Origin: an uncultured virus (IMG/VR IMGVR_UViG_3300035661_000052) | Lineage: Duplodnaviria; Heunggongvirae; Uroviricota; Caudoviricetes | IMG/VR virus record: IMGVR_UViG_3300035661_000052 | Reading direction: 5' to 3' (one strand) | Length of the DNA stretch: 20,000 bases | Shown: positions 9,969 through 20,000 of the stretch, piece after piece | How the letters are laid out: every line of letters starts with the position of its first letter | Numbering within the stretch: the stretch's first letter is position 1 | The notes under the pieces: generated by a model | What the model was told of the DNA's origin: nothing | Seen by the model: the letters and a program-made list of their open reading frames with translations, nothing else | The model's database searches: none | Translations under genes and position numbers: made by a program

Positions 9969-11180
9969 ATGGAATTTCCAACACTATACAAACGCACTAA
10001 GACAGGTGCGATACAACAATGGTCTGTCTTTGTCACAATTGGTTTAGCGGGAGCAATTATTATTAAAAGAGCAGGTCAACTTAATGGTACACTTACTGAA
10101 CACAGAGAAGTAATATCTGTAGGTAAGAACATAGGTAAGAGTAATGAAACCACTCCTTTACAGCAGGCAGAAGCACAGGCTCAATCTGACTGGACAAAAA
10201 AACATGATGAAGGATATAAGAGTTTAAATGATTTGGACATTGTATTATGTACTGATAAAATTCATTTTCCAGGATTGTATATGTATCCAGGATGTGGTAT
10301 TATGTTTATGAATTTGGAGTATTCATTGAATCAAACTTTACCAAAATTTAATTCGGATGCTGCTGGAAATGCAAAACCGATGCTCGCGAAGCCCGTAGAC
10401 TGGAAGAAGGTTACATACCCATGCTATGTGCAACCAAAACTGGATGGTGTACGGTGTTTGATGATTGTGAAATCATATCATCTTACAGCGGATATAACTT
10501 TTCTAAGTCGGAGTGGTAAAGAGTATACAACACTTAATCACATTAAAGATGATGTTCTCAATTATATCGCCGGTAGTGAGCAAGAGTTTATTTTGGACGG
10601 GGAGATATATTCAGAAAATCTAAGTTTCCAGGAAATTGTATCTGCTGTAAAGAAGCAACGACCGGAGTCACTAAAACTTCACTTTCGTGCCTACGACATT
10701 GTAAATGATAAGAAGCAACATCAGCGCATTGAACAGGTTCGTGAATTAATTGATCTAATTGATTCAAAGTATATCCAGTATGTAATCACAATTACAGCTG
10801 CTGTTAAAGATGATGTCACTCATCACCATGATAAGTGGGTATCTGAAGGAAATGAAGGCGCTATGATCAGACACTACAATGGTATCTATGGACAAGGCCA
10901 ACGTTCATCTGACTTACTGAAAGTGAAAGAATTTGATGAGACTGAGTTTGAGTTCAAGTGTTTTGAACAAGGACAACGTGAAGAAGATCTCATTGCTGTA
11001 TGTGAAACTCTTGAGAAGAAAGAGTTCCGTGCAAAGATGATTGGTAACAAACTATCTAAAGCTACAATGCAAACTGAGTGTGGTGAGCTTCTGGGTACTC
11101 AACTTACAGTGAAACATTTCGGTTGGACTACTGATGGTCTCCCACGTTTCCCGATTGGTAAATCATTTCGTGACTATTAA
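9969..11180 (+). CDS. lig: ATP-dependent DNA ligase
   Basis: Motif I QPKLDGVR, SRSGK, LDGEIY, EGAMIR, LLKVK, and C-terminal GLPRFP. Confidence 0.95.
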   Translation: MEFPTLYKRTKTGAIQQWSVFVTIGLAGAIIIKRAGQLNGTLTEHREVISVGKNIGKSNETTPLQQAEAQAQSDWTKKHDEGYKSLNDLDIVLCTDKIHFPGLYMYPGCGIMFMNLEYSLNQTLPKFNSDAAGNAKPMLAKPVDWKKVTYPCYVQPKLDGVRCLMIVKSYHLTADITFLSRSGKEYTTLNHIKDDVLNYIAGSEQEFILDGEIYSENLSFQEIVSAVKKQRPESLKLHFRAYDIVNDKKQHQRIEQVRELIDLIDSKYIQYVITITAAVKDDVTHHHDKWVSEGNEGAMIRHYNGIYGQGQRSSDLLKVKEFDETEFEFKCFEQGQREEDLIAVCETLEKKEFRAKMIGNKLSKATMQTECGELLGTQLTVKHFGWTTDGLPRFPIGKSFRDY

Positions 11181-12898: not shown

Positions 12899-13083
12899 TA
12901 AAGAAATTAAAATGGCTGTTCAGACCATATAAGTACGAAGTGATTTTATTCTCCAGGTTCTCTCTCAATGGTTATAATGTAGTAAGAATAAACAGATACA
13001 CTGGTATACAGAAAATACTGGATGCACAAGTACCCCTGAAGATAGCTGTAAATACTGCTAACCGTTTAAATACTCAAACATGA
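12895..13083 (+). CDS. Hypothetical protein
   Basis: Start MIKKLKW after TAATACACAGCAG. ATGA coupling on both sides. Confidence 0.7.
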   Translation: MIKKLKWLFRPYKYEVILFSRFSLNGYNVVRINRYTGIQKILDAQVPLKIAVNTANRLNTQT

Positions 13084-15272
13084 TACATGTGATAGGAAAT
13101 CCGACAGAGCAGTCTGCTAAATATCAAGCAGGAGATTGGAATCAGTTCAAGCCCTGGATACTGGAATTAGCAGAAGTTGAGTTTGATGTTGAGACCACCG
13201 TGAGTCCATGGTGGTCAGAGAAAAAACTCATCACTGTTCAATTTGGTTGGAATGGTACAGAGTGGGTATTCCAATGGAGTGAACTGTCTGTTGAGCAGAA
13301 AGATTGGATCAAACAGATTTTGGAAAGCAAACGTATCCTCAAACTCATACACAATGCACTCTTTGAATGTACTGTCTGTCTCTTTCATGATATTCGTGTA
13401 CAGAATGTATATGATACTATGTTGGCTGAAATGGTACTACAAGGAGGTGAGCACACAGTAGGCTATGGCCTGGATGACATTTGCTTAAAGAGATTGAACA
13501 TTGTACTCGACAAGTCGCAACAATTGTTATTTGGGGACAACATTCTTAATGAGGCTAAAGTGATTTATGCAGCCCAGGATGTGAAATATCTGAGTAACAT
13601 TCGTCTCTCTATCCAGCAGGAGGCTCAGGCTAAGAACTATGAGACCTTAAACAAAGTGATAGAGTTGGAGAACAGCATTGTACCTGCTTTTGCAGAGATG
13701 GTGTTTCATGGAATGGAACTGGATAAGGAGTGGTGGTTAGGGCTTGCAAGAGAAGCTGAGCCCCTGGTATCCGCTGCACAGCAGAAGTTAAATGAGTGGT
13801 TACAACAGGAGCCATTCAGGACAGTAGCATATCAACTCAATTACCTCAGTGATAAAGATAGAGTACTGATTAACTGGAACAGTCCCAAGCAGAAGGAGAA
13901 ACTCTTTCAGGATTTGTTTCCGGAGTTACCCGGTACCAGTAAGGCTGTATTGAAGAAGTGGCAATCCACTCAACTCAAAGCACAACAGCCGGTACCTGAG
14001 TGGCTCCCCTATTACCTTGATGGTGATAGTACTGAAGTGTCCAAAGTGGTAGTCAATGAGCACAGGGATTACTTGATTGCTGAACAGCAGCTGATTCCTG
14101 CCGGCACGCCTACGATCAATTGGAATAGTACCTATCAGGTATTGCCGCTAATTCAATGTGTGGAACGTGTGAATGATTTGTCTGCTGAGAGTTTAGGTAG
14201 AACATCCCATCCAATTGTTGCAGACTATGAGGAGTACAAAGATACTGCTAAACTACTCTCATCTTTTGGAGAGAAGTGGATAGAAAAATATGTAGAGCCT
14301 GATGGAAAGGTTAGAACATCCTTTAGACAAATTCTCGCTACAGGAAGAACTTCTTCATCTGGCCCCAACCTTCAGCAATTACCAAAGAACAAACGTGTAG
14401 GTAATAAATATCGTAATGCATTTATTCTTCCACCCAAATGGAAATGGGTATCAACTGATTTTGTATCAGAAGAGTTGGTGATTGTTGCTTACTTATCACA
14501 AGAGACTGTATGGCTTGAAGCGTTATCTAAGGGATGCGACTTACACTCGAGTGTAGCTGAAGTTGTGTTCAAGAAGAAGTGGAAAGATGCCGCAACAAGT
14601 ACATGTGAGTTTTATCATCCTCATGTAGATGATAAAGGTGTTTTGTGGCCTGCATATTCACGCAAGAAATGTAATTGCAATGCTCACAAATATCTTCGGG
14701 ACGCTACTAAGACTGTGAATTTCATGTTAGTATATGGTGGGTCTCATTTCAAACTTGCATCAACATTACGCATTACAGTTCCTGAGGCACAGCAGATCAT
14801 TGAAGATTATTTTAAAGCATTGCCGAAACTCAAAAAAGTACTGGATTACTTAGGAGAATTTGGAATTACTAAAGGATACATTCAAACTATTTGGCCCTAC
14901 TATAGGAGACGTTGGTTTCCTAATTGGCAATTCTACACAAGGTTCATTGATGCTCATCTACAAAGTGCACAATTTCATGGTGGATTAGGTGAAATCGAAA
15001 GAGCCAGTAAAAACACCCCGGTTCAGGGTAGTGGGGGGGATATTCTTAAACTCTCTATCAGAAATGTTTACAATTATATTCACGACAACGATCTGTCCTC
15101 TAAGGTTCATCTCAAAATGGAAGTACATGATTCACTTGATACAGCAGCTAAAGAAGAGTATGCTGAAGAGTGGAGTATTATCCAATCACGATTGATGGAA
15201 GATGCTGGTAGAGTATTGATACCGACTGGTATTTTAAAGACTGATACTACACTTACAGTGCGTTGGTCTTAA
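13080..15272 (+). CDS. polA: Family A DNA polymerase with 3'-5' exonuclease domain
   Basis: Exonuclease motifs FDVETT, HNALFE and YAAQDV. Polymerase motifs TGRTSSSGPNLQQLP, motif A (DFVSEEL), motif B (KTVNFMLVYG), NTPVQGSGGD and motif C (VHDS). Confidence 0.95.
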   Translation: MIHVIGNPTEQSAKYQAGDWNQFKPWILELAEVEFDVETTVSPWWSEKKLITVQFGWNGTEWVFQWSELSVEQKDWIKQILESKRILKLIHNALFECTVCLFHDIRVQNVYDTMLAEMVLQGGEHTVGYGLDDICLKRLNIVLDKSQQLLFGDNILNEAKVIYAAQDVKYLSNIRLSIQQEAQAKNYETLNKVIELENSIVPAFAEMVFHGMELDKEWWLGLAREAEPLVSAAQQKLNEWLQQEPFRTVAYQLNYLSDKDRVLINWNSPKQKEKLFQDLFPELPGTSKAVLKKWQSTQLKAQQPVPEWLPYYLDGDSTEVSKVVVNEHRDYLIAEQQLIPAGTPTINWNSTYQVLPLIQCVERVNDLSAESLGRTSHPIVADYEEYKDTAKLLSSFGEKWIEKYVEPDGKVRTSFRQILATGRTSSSGPNLQQLPKNKRVGNKYRNAFILPPKWKWVSTDFVSEELVIVAYLSQETVWLEALSKGCDLHSSVAEVVFKKKWKDAATSTCEFYHPHVDDKGVLWPAYSRKKCNCNAHKYLRDATKTVNFMLVYGGSHFKLASTLRITVPEAQQIIEDYFKALPKLKKVLDYLGEFGITKGYIQTIWPYYRRRWFPNWQFYTRFIDAHLQSAQFHGGLGEIERASKNTPVQGSGGDILKLSIRNVYNYIHDNDLSSKVHLKMEVHDSLDTAAKEEYAEEWSIIQSRLMEDAGRVLIPTGILKTDTTLTVRWS

Positions 15273-15971: not shown

Positions 15972-16415
15972 ATGGGTACAATCAAACAGCCGGGATGTAA
16001 GGATAAGTCCTACATCAAATTAAAGACAATGCATGAAGAATGCCGCTGCTGTGGCAAAGGTCGCGAATGGGTATGCGACAGTTGTAATGCTCTGCTTGAC
16101 AGGGGACATGCATTCTTCATTGAGGTGAAAGATTCCTCAAACGAACAACACAAGAAGCCCACCGGCTATGCGATTGCATTCATTGCAAGAGAAGCCTATG
16201 AACACGGACATCCTGAAGTCACACTGACGCCAGGCATTTACTTCATCAGAGAGAGTGATCTCAAACAATTCTTAGGAGATGGATATAACAAATTTAATCA
16301 TTCCGCCCGATCCGGAGCGCCAGGAAGATTCCTTCACAACGGTGCTGGAAGCCGCCCCCGCGTTAACAGCGGAGCAGCAGATAGTTCACGATCAGCTACT
16401 GAACTGGCTCATTGA
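15972..16415 (+). CDS. Hypothetical Cys-rich protein
   Basis: CRCC...CDSC. The 3' end overlaps the helicase start. Confidence 0.65.
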   Translation: MGTIKQPGCKDKSYIKLKTMHEECRCCGKGREWVCDSCNALLDRGHAFFIEVKDSSNEQHKKPTGYAIAFIAREAYEHGHPEVTLTPGIYFIRESDLKQFLGDGYNKFNHSARSGAPGRFLHNGAGSRPRVNSGAADSSRSATELAH

Positions 16416-16809
16416 TAAGACGAATAAAAAACCAGCAGTCTTTAAAGGATTTGCCGGTGTCGGTAAGAGTTTCACACTGACGTACTTTGTACAATCTGTA
16501 CGTAAGATTTACTCTACTATCTACAATATAGGCATGACAGCGCCAACACACAAGGCTGTTAAAGTGCTCCGTAAGAATGCTATCCTTTCCGTGGACTACC
16601 GCACTCTTCACAGTATGCTTGCTCTCAGGGAGCAGATTAATGAATACACAGGGGAAATCACTTATGAACCAGAGAAGTTTTCTGCTGTTCCACCGCCAAT
16701 TACTGATATTAATCTGCTGATAGTTGATGAAACGTCAATGCTCACAGATCAGTTATTTAATTATCTGGTGCCATGGATCAAGAAAGGGCTCAAGGTAATA
16801 TTTACCGGT
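16279..16809 (+). CDS. dda: Dda/RecD-like SF1B helicase, exon 1
   Basis: Walker A GFAGVGKS, APTHKA, TLHS and IVDETSM. Ends ...IFTG at the 5' splice site. Confidence 0.9.
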
Positions 16810-17789
16810 AGATAAGATTGCCGGTATAAAATCTTTCTAATTGCTGGAAACTCTTGAAGAGGTAGCAACCACAACGCAGAGCCAAAGCTCAATCGTGAGG
16901 GTTTGAAAATGCTACTTTATAAGACAATCAGCAGCGAAGCCTCTTTAATATGAGGAACGTTCAACGACTATCCCGAAAGGGAGTAGGGACAACTGTCCCG
17001 AAACGGAAGAATCTAATAATCATTAACTCTAAAATTATGACAAGAACAATTTTAAGGCACTCAGCAAAGGTTAGAGAGTTGATGACAAAATCTACAGAAT
17101 TATACAAACAAGGAAATCCTAATCATTTCTACGTTTATCAACACCGTATTGGACATAGTATATTCTATGTTGGTATGGGCTCCCATGATAGAGCAGTTCG
17201 TGTTGCCGGACGTTCAGCGGCTTGGAATAACCTTGCAGATCTTGAACAAATCAATGTGATAATAATTTCAAATCTTACCAGCTGCGAGAAAGCTGATATT
17301 ATTGAGAAACAGCAGATTCAAATTTTTGATAAGGCAGTGAATACTCAACATTCCTTTGATAGAGGACATTGCTTTGATCCCATACTTCAATTCTCGAGAG
17401 ACGGAGAGTTGAGGGCTAAATATTTGAGCGCAACAGATGCGCAGTTATTAGGATTTAGTAATGGGTGTATTAGGGCGTGTTGTGATGGAACAAGAGGACT
17501 TCATAAGAATTTTATTTGGATGTATCAGAGTGATTATAACAAATTTGGTTTCCGACATACTGTCAAGCCAAATGAAGTTAAACTTATACAGCAGGTATCA
17601 TTAGATGGGCAAGTCATCAGAGAACTTTCACCAGCATCTGCTTTTAATCAATTTGGATTTACAACTAAGAATGTACAACAAGTTTGTACAGGACAAAAGA
17701 AATCACATGGAGGTTTTAGATTTAAGTATGTAGAAAATTAGATAAGATATAGTCTGATCTTACCAGTAATGGTAAGTTAACAAGAAATG
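16810..17789 (+). mobile_element. Group I self-splicing intron (IA2-like) with homing endonuclease
   Basis: P1 TACCGGT|A...TGCCGGTA with a U-G pair at the splice site. P (AATTGCTGGAAAC), Q (AATCAGCAGCG), R (GTTCAACGACTA) and S (AAGATATAGTCT) elements, P7.1/P7.2 hairpins, P9 TTACCA-GTAA-TGGTAA and terminal G at 17789. Splicing restores FTG-DPFQVPPV. Confidence 0.92.
17037..17741 (+). CDS. Intron-encoded GIY-YIG homing endonuclease with two NUMOD1-like domains
   Basis: FYVYQH...FYVGMG...R nuclease motif. C-terminal repeats PILQFSRDG...CC.G...F.W.Y and IQQVSLDG...VCTG..KSHGGFRFKY. Confidence 0.85.
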   Translation: MTRTILRHSAKVRELMTKSTELYKQGNPNHFYVYQHRIGHSIFYVGMGSHDRAVRVAGRSAAWNNLADLEQINVIIISNLTSCEKADIIEKQQIQIFDKAVNTQHSFDRGHCFDPILQFSRDGELRAKYLSATDAQLLGFSNGCIRACCDGTRGLHKNFIWMYQSDYNKFGFRHTVKPNEVKLIQQVSLDGQVIRELSPASAFNQFGFTTKNVQQVCTGQKKSHGGFRFKYVEN

Positions 17790-18704
17790 GATCCATTTCA
17801 GGTGCCGCCTGTGAAGCATGAAGACTGTATTCCATTCAGAAACTCAGTTGCCTGGGATTTGCCTACATGGCAACTCTCCAATATCATGCGGCAGAAAGAG
17901 GGTAATCCAATTATTGAGTTTGTAACCCTCATCAGGGACAACCCATTTGAAGAACACTATGATCCTAAAGAACACCTGCTGGATAATGGGACAGGGATCA
18001 GTCTTGTGGATGAAGGCAGCCAGAGAGAATCGGCATTGCTTAAAGAATTATTCACTGATCAGGCATTCAAGAAAGACTCTGACTTCATGAAAGTGATAGC
18101 CTGGAGAAATGCTACTGTGAATAAGTACAATGACATCATCCGGTCAATCATCTATCCTCAGCATGAACACCTGCTGAGGATTATGCAAGGTGAGAAGCTC
18201 ATCATGGAAAAGCCGTATGTCATCAATCCGCGATCGTTGCTTACAAAGAACGATGAGATAGAAGTGAAAACTGTCTCCACTCTTAACAAGCAGATCACCT
18301 GGACAGATGCTTATGGAATCTTTGACAATGCTAACTTCAAATTCTACCAGGTAGGCATTGAATGGTACACAGAGAGGGGCATGAAGCAGGGACACATCCC
18401 GATTATTCATGATGACTCTCTACCAGCTTTCGCTAAGCTGATTGACAGCCTGAAACAGATGGCCCTTTCAGCACCGGCAGACAAGCGCAGCCGGATGTGG
18501 AGGCAGTACTATAAGACCATCGGTGAATCCGCATGGACTAAGTACAACTACTCTATAACCACACATTTGTCTCAGGGAAGTACTTATAAACAGTCAATCG
18601 TCCTGCAGTGGGACATATTAGCTAACAAGAAAGTGAGCGAACGTAACAGGATACTGTATACAGCCTGTACGAGAGCTTCTGACACATTATTTATTGAAGC
18701 ATAA
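17790..18704 (+). CDS. dda: Dda/RecD-like SF1B helicase, exon 2 (spliced product about 481 aa)
   Basis: DPFQVPPV, IMRQ, AWRNATV, YSITTHLSQGSTY and LYTACTRA. Confidence 0.9.
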   Translation, partial: DPFQVPPVKHEDCIPFRNSVAWDLPTWQLSNIMRQKEGNPIIEFVTLIRDNPFEEHYDPKEHLLDNGTGISLVDEGSQRESALLKELFTDQAFKKDSDFMKVIAWRNATVNKYNDIIRSIIYPQHEHLLRIMQGEKLIMEKPYVINPRSLLTKNDEIEVKTVSTLNKQITWTDAYGIFDNANFKFYQVGIEWYTERGMKQGHIPIIHDDSLPAFAKLIDSLKQMALSAPADKRSRMWRQYYKTIGESAWTKYNYSITTHLSQGSTYKQSIVLQWDILANKKVSERNRILYTACTRASDTLFIEA

Positions 18705-18892
18705 CAGATCAACAACAAGTCGAGTATTTAGCAAGTCCTTTTCATTGTCCATATTGTAATAGCACTAATATTGATGCGGATACTGTTGAAATGAATGGTA
18801 CTGGAGGTATTTCTAAGATAACCTGTGCAGGGCTTGTCGAAGGAAAGGAATTTGAAAAATCGAATTTCAGCCCTTATTCCACAGCCAAATAG
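18701..18892 (+). pseudogene. Truncated Zn-ribbon gene fused to an attC-like sequence
   Basis: (ATA)TDQQQVEYLASPFHCPYCNSTNIDADTVEMNGTGGISKITC|AGLVEG...*. The second CxxC is cut after its first Cys. The start reads ATA where an ATGA overlap with the helicase stop would be expected. Confidence 0.55.
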
Positions 18893-18952
18893 CGTTACAA
18901 ATGTTCATAGCCTGTTCGTCCAGCCTTTCTTTTGCCAAACCGTTTGTTAGGC
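18817..18952 (+). mobile_element. attC-like (integron cassette) recombination site
   Basis: TAAC (18819-18822) ... GTTAGGC (18946-18952, fits GTTRRRY). Arms GGCTTGTCGAAGGAAAGG (18831-18848) and CCTTTCTTTTGCCAAACC (18924-18941) are complementary at 14/18 positions. Confidence 0.6.
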
Positions 18953-19014
18953 GTTGTTGTGGGTAGTTTAAGGTTCTCAATGGTCGCAATAAAAAAAAGA
19001 TTTTCAAAAATAAA

Positions 19015-19049
19015 TTTGTTCGTTTCAAATAGCTTCACTTATCTTCGCA
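19015..19049 (+). promoter_or_regulatory. Bacteroidota housekeeping promoter
   Basis: -33 TTTG (19015-19018), a 21-nt spacer, then -7 TATCTTCG(CA) (19040-19047), one mismatch to TAnnTTTG. Confidence 0.65.
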
Positions 19050-19081
19050 TAGCAATTAAGCAAAATTAAATTTTAAAGATT

Positions 19082-19705
19082 ATGGAAAAAATGACAATCC
19101 ACAGAGCATTATCAGAATTGAAACTGATTGATGCCAAAATTGAAAAGCAAATTAACGAAGTGCTGCCTTCTGGTATTTTACAGAAAGGAAAATTAGTTAA
19201 CGGTTACATTCAGGAAGCTGAATTTGAAAAATCGGCTAAATCAAAGTACGATTCAGTAAATGATTTGATTGACAGAAAAAACAAAATCAAATCTGCTATT
19301 GTAACTGCCAACGGCGTTACACAGGTAAAAGTTTCTGATAAGCAAATGACCATAGCCGATGCTATCAACTTCAAAGCGGTAATTAAGTTCAAAAAGAAAC
19401 TGATTGCAACCTTAAAGCAAAGGCACTTACAGGCTGTTGGTGAATTAAATAAACACAACGAAGCTGTAAACGCAAACGTACAAAGGATTTTGGAAGCAAC
19501 GTTTGGAAAGGAAAATGTAAAGGTTGGTAAAGAAGATGTTGAATCAGTTAGAAAGCCTTATATGGATGCAAACGAATTTCATTTGTTTGACCCTTTAAAA
19601 GTTGATGCTACTGTGGAAGCATTGGAAAAAGAAGTATCTGAATTTGAGGCAGAGGTTGATGCCGTTCTTTCTGAAATTAACGCAGTAACAATAATTGAGT
19701 TCTAA
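19082..19705 (+). CDS. Helical coiled-coil protein (DIP1984/septicolysin-like; function unknown) upstream of a structured RNA
   Basis: MTIHRALSELKLIDAKIEK...IKSAIVTAN...MTIADAI...LFDPL...EVDAVLSEINAVTIIEF. Confidence 0.85.
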   Translation: MEKMTIHRALSELKLIDAKIEKQINEVLPSGILQKGKLVNGYIQEAEFEKSAKSKYDSVNDLIDRKNKIKSAIVTANGVTQVKVSDKQMTIADAINFKAVIKFKKKLIATLKQRHLQAVGELNKHNEAVNANVQRILEATFGKENVKVGKEDVESVRKPYMDANEFHLFDPLKVDATVEALEKEVSEFEAEVDAVLSEINAVTIIEF

Positions 19706-19709
19706 AAAT

Positions 19710-20000
19710 AATTGATTGGCTGCCCGAAAATCTCAGACACTATTCCTGCCGCTCTAACAGGTAAAATTGAGCAACCTAATGTTAATAGGCAATCAACATT
19801 TAATCAATGTTTTCAAGGTTCAAGTCCTTGCTTCTCGTAAGAGATGTGGCGGAACTGGTAAACGCAATTGATAAAAAAAAACTGAAAAGTTTAAAGATGA
19901 ACGCTTAAAGATAAAAGGTTAAAATTTAAAGCTCTTTACGATTAAAGCTGAAAACGCAAAGTGTAAAGTTCTTTTGAATCTACGGTAAAAGTTTGATAAG
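19710..20000 (+). ncRNA. Structured RNA: tandem pseudoknots, circularly permuted tRNA-like domain and heptamer repeats (truncated by the window)
   Basis: PK1 at 19745-19772 and PK2 at 19775-19799. T-arm CAAGG-TTCAAGT-CCTTG, acceptor-like CTTCTC-GTAA-GAGATG, D-arm GCG-GAACTGGTAAA-CGC, anticodon-stem-like ATCAAT/ATTGAT, then GNTNAAA repeats. Confidence 0.75.
19889..19967 (+). repeat. 7-nt periodic GNTNAAA tract
   Basis: GTTTAAA GATGAAC GCTTAAA GATAAAA GGTTAAA ATTTAAA GCTCTTTAC GATTAAA GCTGAAA ACGCAAA GTGTAAA. Confidence 0.75.

Follow-up and report, generated by a model that had tools for sequence, protein, structure and literature searches.

What kind of genetic unit is formed by a 207-residue protein gene and the long tract that follows it at the very end of a 20,000-nucleotide stretch of tailed-phage DNA (hereafter, the window)? 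The preliminary description of this DNA took the two for a self-contained ribonucleoprotein module. As set out below, the gene and a structured RNA encoded after it are indeed inherited as one unit, while the ribonucleoprotein itself is something that we infer. Our preferred reading, to which we give a probability of about 45%, is that the locus belongs to a very widespread and undescribed two-part module, a helical protein plus an ornate RNA, which would form a ribonucleoprotein with autoregulation. The features on which the argument draws are collected in Table 1.

Table 1. Features of the locus, in order along the window
Feature	Start	End	Strand	Details and basis
Possible Bacteroidota-type promoter	19015	19047	+	TTTG at 19015-19018, 21 nt, TATCTTCG at 19040-19047
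Heptamer-like box TAAAGATTAT	19074	19083	+	Adjoins the start codon; putative operator at which the protein would act
Protein ORF	19082	19705	+	207 aa; PHROG 1491 / T5.085 family; helical bundle, predicted homodimer
Closing helix P1, 5' strand	19712	19725	+	Partner past the window end; covariation in relatives
CGAAAA junction (near-invariant) and P2 5' strand	19725	19734	+	Alignments A4 and A5; P2 partner outside the window
5' pseudoknot domain	19745	19789	+	H1, pairing of the H1 loop with 19769-19772, hairpin H2
Permuted tRNA-like module	19803	19872	+	Read from sequence; sub-threshold YrlA matches in relatives
Heptamer array, about 11 NAAAGNN units	19883	19975	+	Register counts; model R1 match
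Start of 3' domain	19977	20000	+	AATC box and P3 5' strand; remainder past the window

The protein matches the PHROG 1491 profile over its full length (E-value 4.5e-56, residues 1-207 on profile positions 2-209 of 211). This family comprises 2262 clusters at 50% identity and is present in 800 phage records, although Pfam has no family for the protein and searches of NCBIfam and the ESM Atlas returned nothing useful for it. The PHROG label, 'tail fiber protein', is supported neither by the fold nor by the context, namely early and tRNA regions and chromosomal copies. Some deposited records of the family carry the same annotation and others read 'hypothetical protein'. The chain had been described as all-helical; its length stands, but 'mostly helical' is the more accurate term, as the AlphaFold2 model (89 relatives in the alignment, pLDDT 95.9) combines five helices with a small three-part sheet drawn from the N-terminus, residues 81-90 and the C-terminus. 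When modeled as a homodimer, the protein reaches an ipSAE of 0.58, against 0.00 for the best control, with contact agreement between runs of at least 97% and a partner pLDDT of at least 88. Of 30 proteins whose solved structure is a pair of one chain, 20 reach the mark used, as does 1 of 23 with a solved single-chain structure; these counts hold only roughly here because the input was our own alignment. The protein is close to neutral in charge (pI 6.5; family median 6.1), and no known RNA-binding fold was found for it by fold and sequence searches. The sole relative that these searches found is 3kdq (profile E 0.01; Foldseek E 5.5e-3; VIA Z 10.0, rmsd 7.1 over 149 residues), a protein without assigned function; the remaining rows of the fold search are generic helical bundles.

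Structured RNA starts at position 19712 on the plus strand and extends past the end of the window. Consistent with the earlier view of a non-coding tract, the window has no plus-strand ORF of at least 50 aa 3' of position 19705, and in relatives the DNA 3' of the gene is better conserved than the protein. Complete RNAs in relatives run to about 250-490 nt; in these full copies the closing helix covaries, a pseudoknot forms the core, a further pseudoknot domain lies at the 5' end, and there is a variable insertion site. That site is occupied in the window by a permuted YrlA-like tRNA mimic, after which come the heptamers. The nearest virus record (G001) has nothing resembling window positions 19000-20000, and hence offers no source for the missing 3' end of the RNA; a DNA search of the phage collection with the window likewise gave no match. 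One relative, L003, does read on beyond the corresponding position, but it comes from another phage and its insert is not the same.

Across distant phages and chromosomes, the protein gene and the RNA are, with very few exceptions, inherited together. R1, a covariance model built on the 3' half of the RNA, matches the window at 19883-20000 with 87.3 bits, the match being cut by the window end. Among the phage sources, 94 of 96 return a single R1 match, always on the strand of the gene and directly 3' of it, with zero matches elsewhere in the 628,614 bases searched; the two sources with no match have no downstream DNA present. R1 is also found in 33 of the 35 bacterial loci, a set gathered with alignment A2 and so biased towards closer relatives. 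The homologs thus keep the downstream RNA, a point on which the preliminary description had staked its proposal. In three whole genomes, four RNA matches adjoin four protein matches. In the case of 121 genomes from one family, the RNA occurs in 22, of which 21 have the adjacent protein gene; there, an intact protein gene never occurs without the RNA, and the RNA occurs without an intact protein gene in 3 of the 22. A further locus, L131, has the protein and no detectable RNA. Phage members include T5-like phages, Vequintavirinae, Herelleviridae, Bastillevirinae, clostridial, lactococcal and T4-like phages, Otagovirus and jumbo phages, and the hosts belong to Bacteroidota, Bacillota and Pseudomonadota. 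Chromosomal copies, as in Sporosarcina, Lederbergia and relatives, occur as the two-part cassette at different sites amid ordinary genes. Short contigs from three RNA libraries (three studies) fall on 19625-19851, 19734-19978 and 19725-20000, which are hints at transcription only, since such libraries may contain DNA; stretches of the window with no contigs of this kind carry no evidential weight. One DNA run reads straight across the same stretch.

Other features once drawn into the picture find no support as general ones. The Bacteroidota promoter is only a match to a consensus (TTTG and TATCTTCG); no conservation of it is apparent in L001 or L002, a sigma-70 scan of the stretch was uninformative, and as a general feature it is unsupported. 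The same holds for an attC-like site, which amounts to an imperfect inverted repeat with 18-nt arms (18831-18848/18924-18941), 78% complementary and separated by 75 nt; integron attC sites combine such a repeat with R/L core sites and extrahelical bases. A neighborhood of rtcB genes, also suggested, was seen at one locus (L012) among 133 sources.

The fold of the RNA, comprising P1, the P2/P3 pseudoknot core, the 5' pseudoknot domain, helix P4 and an AAAG array in 7-nt register, is under selection. In an alignment of 32 diverse RNAs, 81.6% of the cells at 41 pairs are paired, as against 58.0% after shuffling, with 0 of 500 shuffles reaching the observed value, and 37 of the 41 pairs are changed on both sides. 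Slid controls on this alignment gave 34-46%, a comparison in which the fold has an advantage because it was taken from one aligned sequence. For P1, examined in 32 complete relatives, 94.6% of cells pair and all 13 pairs show double changes. P2 (alignments A4 and A5) is 72% paired, with double changes in five of six pairs, and P3, the helix that makes up a pseudoknot together with P2, is paired in 100% of cells, with double changes in three of four pairs. The 5' domain was examined in 17 sequences: 85.5% of cells are paired versus 73.2% in shuffles, none of 500 shuffles is as high, and 10 of 15 pairs have double changes. Two tandem pseudoknots had been proposed. The first is borne out by covariation, both in H1 (19745-19748/19758-19761) and in the loop-to-downstream pairing (19751-19754/19769-19772), whereas the second pairs in 81.7% of cells with zero covariation. 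The arms of hairpin H2 lie at 19775-19778 and 19786-19789.

The count of about 11 seven-nucleotide repeats is upheld. Exact AAAG cores lie at 19886, 19893, 19907, 19914, 19928, 19944, 19958 and 19965, eight in all, with degenerate units in between, and two copies from the array, AAAGCTCTTT (19928-19937) and AAAGTTCTTT (19965-19974), base-pair with each other to give helix P4. In 30 RNAs, the spacing of successive cores is a multiple of 7 in 119 of 189 gaps; TRF, run on L003, gives modest period-7 and period-21 rows with scores of 30-53. A box resembling a single heptamer recurs in front of the protein gene. The form AAAGAT[TGC]AT or AAAGTTTAT occurs no more than 50 nt from the start at 22 of 47 non-redundant loci, as compared with 1 of 383 other ORFs in the same loci, although the 47 lineages are mutually related and the box count is therefore not a probability. 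Loci that bear the box belong to several clades, with proteins about 30% identical to that of the window; it is missing in the other 25 lineages, including T5-like, Bcp1 and clostridial phages.

It is because of this enrichment at the start codon that we read the pair as an autoregulated ribonucleoprotein. The protein, probably a dimer that multimerises, would bind the AAAG heptamers and so form the particle; by also binding the lone heptamer-like box in the ribosome-binding region of its gene, it would limit its own translation. The proposal that an oligomer of the protein might read the periodic tract thereby gains indirect support from the start-codon box and the dimer model. The module often lies within phage tRNA or tmRNA arrays, a context suggesting that it may serve RNA metabolism or translation while the phage infects its host.

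A permuted tRNA-like fold, as first described, can be read in the window from an outer stem (19803-19808/19867-19872), a T arm (19814-19830), a D arm (19849-19865) and an acceptor-like stem (19833-19844) that is loop-closed by GTAA; the T arm covaries in the alignment. The YrlA model RF02553, whose gathering threshold is 69 bits, matches the same module below that threshold in L003 (30.8 bits, model positions 23-87) and in eight of nine further loci (28.6-48.2 bits), L006 giving no match. Against the window it has no match at E-values up to 10, and ARAGORN calls zero tRNAs or tmRNAs there. In a gut-phage clade, ARAGORN does call odd tRNAs within the RNA, for instance at 3808-3880 of L028. The module accounts for no more than roughly one fifth of the RNA and is missing from L001 and L013, among many family members; being an optional insert, it cannot be the core function. 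The variable insertion site takes tRNA-like modules, whose probable task is to attract tRNA-handling enzymes or to make the RNA more stable. Ro60 (PF05731) was found in none of five relatives' records, two of them estimated to be 100% complete, under a search that matched control genomes. Y-RNA-type tRNA mimics can evidently occur as modular inserts in larger RNAs, independently of Ro60.

The RNA may act without the protein, because one bacterial chromosome (G026) carries it with no protein gene, behind its own promoter (TTGACC-17-TATAAT), and because an intact RNA stands beside broken protein genes in G093 and G119. Such copies, the stronger conservation of the RNA than of the protein, and a phage-borne location with tRNA genes alongside (32 of 67 non-redundant loci), as for GOLLD and ROOL, would all suit an ornate RNA of that general class that is functional in itself and may self-assemble, the protein being a co-transcribed helper or mechanistically unrelated. 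We regard this as unlikely. It has to contend with near-perfect, same-strand adjacency to one protein family across phyla, and neither ROOL nor GOLLD is known to show such fixed adjacency. It also leaves the heptamer-like box at the protein start unexplained, and the Rfam models of GOLLD and ROOL, at gathering or E-value thresholds, do not match the window, L001-L003, L084, L085, L034, L021 or nine additional loci.

That the pair is a selfish or conflict module, its repeat RNA keeping the protein in check in the style of type III toxin-antitoxin systems, or else a defence or counter-defence device, seems improbable to us. Like ToxIN, the locus joins a protein gene to a tandem-repeat RNA in a compact mobile cassette of phages and chromosomes. 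The varied chromosomal sites in Sporosarcina, Lederbergia and their relatives fit such a module, as does the one-sided dependence among the 121 genomes, where only the RNA is ever found without an intact partner. Type III systems, however, have repeats of about 34-36 nt upstream of an endoribonuclease toxin of the ToxN/AbiQ type, whereas the repeats here are 7-nt units, lie downstream of the gene for a helical protein and are part of a large folded RNA. No nuclease or toxin fold is matched among the rows of the fold search, a result that does not extend to families unlisted there. Furthermore, the module is kept throughout large virulent phage groups (the 800 records) rather than scattered, and L131 has the protein where the RNA is undetectable.

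Rather doubtful, too, is the idea that the array acts as a sponge or decoy and draws off a host protein with affinity for A-rich single-stranded RNA (a major endoribonuclease, an RNA chaperone or ribosomal protein S1, for instance), while the fold and the tRNA mimic shield it against decay. Many exposed A-rich units in register would be apt for this, AGAUU and AGUUU units resemble the preference of RNase E, and Aeromonas phage LAh_9 has, immediately upstream of the module, a gene whose annotation reads ProQ-like RNA chaperone. Yet the Bacteroidota, Bacillota and Pseudomonadota that serve as hosts differ in their RNases and chaperones, and the obligatory neighboring protein would go unexplained.

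By analogy with VIPR, the module could be an RNA-guided or RNA-scaffolded machine, in which protomers coat the array, grip the AAAG cores and display about 11 x 3 variable nucleotides as a gapped, noncontiguous code for a nucleic-acid target. According to its preprint, VIPR consists of the RAMP protein Vipr and an RNA, vrRNA, that form a ribonucleoprotein, the vrRNA having 9-16 short-period repeats with a constant core and variable positions, and a conserved, structured pseudoknot tail (bioRxiv 10.64898/2026.04.26.720920). Both systems are minimal, phage-encoded and present on some chromosomes, with the protein gene flanked by a repeat RNA that has a structured part. They differ in that Vipr is an RRM/RAMP protein, while the protein here is helical with a three-part sheet and has no RAMP among its fold matches; in the repeat, YNNGG with period 5 as against NNNAAAG with period 7; and in the RNA, about 100 nt for vrRNAs and far larger here, with tRNA mimics. 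Among close relatives, no hypervariability limited to the N positions of the heptamers was seen. We consider gapped guidance a long shot; if true, it would be a second independent invention with an unrelated protein, in T5 and hundreds of other phages.

Hardly credible is an element acting as DNA or in cis (origin iterons, a packaging site, or the 3' UTR or terminator of the protein gene), for which short periodic A-tracts typical of iterons and bent DNA, a position after replication genes in the window and a T run after P1 in many relatives might be cited, but which is at odds with one-strand compensatory changes in long-range helices and pseudoknots, the tRNA-like modules, the stand-alone chromosomal copy with its own promoter, and the phages that carry the RNA inside tRNA arrays, distant from replication genes.

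Returning to the autoregulated ribonucleoprotein, we asked what is already described that resembles it. No family in Rfam 15 fits the window or its relatives, the sole match being the sub-threshold YrlA, and no characterised family thus takes away its novelty. A literature search, with thin coverage of subscription journals, found no description of the gene and RNA pair. In a set of 10,006 viral candidate RNAs (PMC10690425), six contig names are absent from the files covered, and portions of this RNA may still be listed there unnamed. Two candidates were set aside: AcrIIIA1, a 10-kDa protein that binds tRNA fragments (PMC11662646), is unrelated, and among the phage K lncRNAs beside tRNAs (PMC9241854), the best R1 E-value is 0.2 with filters off, while gp233 is no homolog (hhalign probability 0.2). 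An RNA of 800 nt is also described from ICP1 (PMC7567579).

The likeness to YrlA lies in the inserted module, which has a T arm, a loop-closed acceptor-like stem, a D arm and an 'anticodon' stem that opens into the RNA. YrlA carries a GNCGAAN0-1G motif (PMC4201824), and the RNA of the window has a CGAA-containing junction by its terminal helix. The scores, however, remain below 69 bits, and the partner here is a 207-aa helical bundle, whereas YrlA is encoded next to Ro60 (Rsr), a TROVE ring.

For the array, the analogy is with protein-RNA pairs built on repeats: CsrA with CsrB, TRAP with (G/U)AG repeats, and HutP with UAG at 7-nt spacing. These would share with our locus many cores of 3-4 nt in fixed register, an oligomeric protein and single sites in ribosome-binding regions for translational control. 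No sequence or fold relation to them was found, and here a large folded RNA surrounds the array, in a pair that is phage-borne and mobile.

GOLLD can enclose a tRNA. GOLLD and ROOL resemble the present RNA in their length of hundreds of nucleotides, their several helices with pseudoknots, their presence in phages and their frequent position near tRNA genes (PMC7567579, PMC9241854, PMC12286853). In contrast to them, the RNA of the window is linked to one protein family, has a 7-nt AAAG array and is smaller, mostly about 250-490 nt. If real, this cassette of roughly 1 kb would be among the most widely distributed unannotated features of tailed phages, its RNA carrying no annotation at all in deposited records, and it would add a class to the few large ornate RNAs known from bacteria and phages. 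Unlike the other ornate RNAs, it comes with an evident partner protein and, through T5 in E. coli K-12, with a host amenable to genetics, so that its function is directly testable.

Directly downstream of the ORF at 19082-19705, which does encode the 207 residues first ascribed to it, no further ORF follows the stop codon, in keeping with the proposed non-coding character of this stretch, and the sequence is conserved in relatives whose proteins are just 53-58% identical. ARAGORN finds neither tRNA nor tmRNA in the window, no Rfam family matches in the RNA region, and the RNA is far longer than could be seen from the window. In three relatives' loci (L001, L002, and L003), the bases directly 3' of the stop codon form a helix with bases lying 250-340 nt further on; this helix closes the RNA and varies between the phages by compensatory substitutions. 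RNAalifold, given 17 RNAs of the window clade, returns the closing helix P1, helix P2, the T arm, the array helix P4, and a small 3' hairpin. Because helix P3 crosses P2, the core of the RNA is a pseudoknot. Covariation was counted over 41 pairs in 32 diverse RNAs, drawn from IMG/VR phages, a T5-like phage, phiPsa315, an Acinetobacter T4-like phage, C. botulinum and C. difficile phages, Erwinia Hena1, Lactococcus AM3, and E. coli TH18. Standard pairs occupy 81.6% of cells, against 58.0% in column shuffles, 37 of the 41 pairs show changes on both sides, and the score of 0.567 (0.174 shuffled) is reached by 0 of 500 shuffles, all for a structure drawn from one member and for aligned sequences that are mutually related. 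A control with slid partners gives just 34-46% pairing. P1 is paired in 94.6% of cells, with double changes in 13 of 13 pairs, and P3 in 100%. As for the two pseudoknots originally drawn in the 5' domain, hairpin H1 and its loop-to-downstream pairing covary in the window clade (4/4 pairs), as does the second hairpin; the second pseudoknot is kept but uninformative. The RNA is shown to be conserved and pseudoknotted, and it is several hundred nucleotides long.

R1, a covariance model of the 3' half, was built on the 157 3'-most positions in 30 RNAs. It gives 94 matches in 96 sources, one per source, on the strand of the protein gene and just downstream of it, with no further match in 628,614 bases searched on both strands; the two sources lacking a match end at the gene or 166 nt past it. 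Among the matches, 64 of the 94 lie outside the seed, many of the gut-phage loci being near-duplicates. In bacterial genome contigs, R1 matches 33 of 35 loci; the other two are L132, which is truncated, and L131, where turning the filters off still yields nothing. Three whole genomes contain four RNA matches, each directly downstream of one of four protein matches, and no other match to either. All annotated records inspected have an unannotated gap of 300-1200 nt 3' of the family gene. The RNA is present in 22 of 121 genomes from the family to which one Sporosarcina genome belongs, and in 21 of the 22 the protein gene adjoins it on the same strand. In the exception, G026, a TTGACC-17-TATAAT promoter precedes the RNA and there is no trace of the protein gene; in G093 and G119 the RNA is intact and the protein gene is truncated or in pieces. 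Another genome (G101) pairs a divergent protein with a weak R1 match (15.8 bits) at the expected place, and the Lederbergia genome G009 carries two complete cassettes on different contigs (C4:288140-289061 and C6:122506-123392). That the RNA acts alone is unlikely; its pairing with one protein family is near-obligatory, in phages of three phyla and on some chromosomes. The self-contained protein-plus-RNA module of the preliminary description is supported, and the finding is real and much broader than could have been known from the window.

The window protein belongs to no Pfam or NCBIfam family, but matches PHROG 1491 along its entire length (E 4.5e-56). One library holds 661 near-length matches and another 2262 clusters at 50% identity, and tblastn finds the family in 800 phage records. 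Carriers include T5-like Demerecviridae (T5.085 is the name given in the AKFV33 annotation), Vequintavirinae, Bastillevirinae, clostridial, lactococcal, and T4-like phages, Otagovirus, Thalassavirus, and jumbo phages. Described initially as all-helical, the protein is confidently predicted by AlphaFold2 to be an elongated helical bundle, with a small sheet of N- and C-terminal strands and a hairpin besides. By sequence profile or fold its sole relative is 3kdq, itself without a known function. The two-copy model passes the tool's mark and supports a putative dimer: ipSAE is 0.58 against 0.00 for the best control, contacts agree by at least 97% between runs, and partner pLDDT is at least 88. 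Of proteins solved as one-chain pairs, 20 of 30 reach this mark, as does 1 of 23 of those solved as single chains; for the present model, which used a custom alignment, these rates apply only roughly.

The window itself represents the replication region of a Bacteroidota-type phage, and its last kilobase is not covered by the nearest virus record. Neither the promoter nor the attC-like context formerly assigned to the module is borne out. The 377-nt gap ahead of the family gene has no plus-strand ORF of at least 50 aa; a short Cys-rich open frame, its start codon not obvious, was seen there by eye.

Features of the window and helices of the RNA
Feature	Position	Details
ATP-dependent ligase	9969-11180	
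Family A polymerase	13080-15272	with 3'-5' exonuclease
Dda-like helicase gene	16279-16815 and 17787-18704	two ORFs, interrupted by group I intron
Group I intron	16800-17097	inside helicase gene; Rfam RF00028, 52.2 bits (gathering 50)
Homing endonuclease, I-HmuI/NUMOD-type	16950-17741	ORF carried by the intron
Gap between helicase and family genes	18705-19080	imperfect inverted repeat 18831-18848/18924-18941
Start-codon box	19074-19083	TAAAGATTAT
Permuted tRNA-like unit	19803-19872	stem 19803-19808/19867-19872, T arm (TTCAAGT loop), 4-bp acceptor-like stem closed by GTAA, D arm
P2		GAAAAACAC paired with GTGTTTTGT; RNAalifold, 17 RNAs
P4		the two AAAGTTCTTT copies paired; RNAalifold, 17 RNAs
P3		AAATCC-NNN with NNN-GG just 5' of CTG and the P1 3' strand; added by eye

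Sequences 95-99% identical to 18900-20000 occur in public runs X5-X18, labelled mouse gut, bat gut, wastewater, freshwater, hot spring, and activated sludge, with about 0.26-0.32 of sampled words present in each; the source is a phage of cosmopolitan distribution or else a contaminant from reagents or the laboratory. Short contigs 97-99% identical to the window come from three RNA libraries of three studies (19625-19851, 19734-19978, and 19725 to past 20000), and two of them start 9 nt or less from the CGAAAA junction, which weakly hints at a discrete transcript. Contigs from one DNA run cross the same stretch.

In 32 of 67 non-redundant loci, ARAGORN detects tRNA or tmRNA genes in the flanking 2.5-3 kb, and these are almost without exception on the same strand; they occur at 10 of 12 cultured-phage loci as against only 2 of 19 bacterial ones. 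Phage tmRNA genes lie immediately upstream of the family gene in L017 (2483-2863, circularly permuted) and L020 (2534-2941), giving the order tmRNA, protein, ornate RNA, and about 3.4 kb upstream in L002 (2275-2641). The suggested rtcB linkage is not supported, an RtcB RNA ligase gene being directly upstream only in L012 (1271-2731; PF01139, E 2.8e-43), one of 133 sources. Other RNA-handling neighbours are found in single lineages each: 2',3'-cyclic phosphodiesterase and peptidyl-tRNA hydrolase-like genes in Acinetobacter phage Octan (L087 272-727 and 2182-2418), a gene annotated as a ProQ-like chaperone in Aeromonas phage LAh_9 (L095 2103-2399), and an RNase T-type exonuclease in Tenacibaculum (L103 1856-2422). 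Module-bearing gut phages of 100-150 kb (L028-L083) encode tRNAs in long arrays, among them suppressor tRNAs with a CTA anticodon that ARAGORN labels 'Pyl' (for instance, L034 4484-4560 and L037 4853-4929), which suggests amber recoding. In Sporosarcina, Lederbergia, and relatives, the cassette sits amid ordinary genes that differ between species (LytS-type kinase, acetyltransferases, LuxS, aminoacyl-tRNA synthetase, ABC transporters, ECF sigma factors), with no phage genes around; the pair, roughly 1 kb, is therefore both mobile and maintained as one unit.

An insertion site separates the 5' domain of the RNA from the heptamer array. In the window clade the insert is a permuted tRNA mimic, read from sequence and agreeing with the initial proposal; it gives sub-threshold matches to the Rfam model for YrlA in L003 and 8 of 9 other loci, and the records of five relatives contain no Ro60 gene. 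The 100-150 kb gut phages have an ordinary-order cloverleaf instead, where ARAGORN calls odd tRNAs, and no tRNA-like unit occupies the site in L001, L013, the T5-like phage, or the Sporosarcina copies. These mimics and the tRNA/tmRNA neighbourhood point to a candidate role in RNA metabolism or translation.

The heptamers recognized earlier hold up as about 11 units in the window, with AAAG cores in a 7-nt register. Across 30 RNAs, core spacings are multiples of 7 in 119 of 189, and the three non-core positions are variable (entropies of 1.5-1.9 bits). In many lineages a box resembling one array unit lies 5' of the protein start codon. Of 47 non-redundant loci, 22 have the pattern AAAGAT[TGC]AT or AAAGTTTAT no more than 50 nt from the start; among 383 other ORFs (80 aa or longer) from the same loci, 1 does. 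The box abuts the ATG in the window clade and lies 25-33 nt upstream, ahead of the Shine-Dalgarno sequence, in the gut phages, phiPsa315, and the Acinetobacter phage; T5-like, Bcp1, clostridial, and other lineages lack it. We infer, with a probability of about 0.45, that the protein reads the array: it would recognize the AAAG heptamers, coat the array, and, by way of the start-codon box, repress its own translation. A cassette of toxin-antitoxin-like or conflict type is improbable, a sponge for a host factor slightly more so, and a DNA or cis element very unlikely.

The pair is undescribed in the literature and Rfam searched, including the part covered of a catalogue listing 10,006 candidate viral RNAs without names. 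By the membership criteria tested, the RNA and its module fall outside GOLLD, ROOL, YrlA, and VIPR. The likeness to YrlA is confined to one module of the RNA. GOLLD and ROOL resemble it in size, ornateness, and phage/tRNA context, and the VIPR vrRNAs (bioRxiv 10.64898/2026.04.26.720920) have a like architecture, a short-period repeat tract and a pseudoknotted tail beside a phage protein gene.
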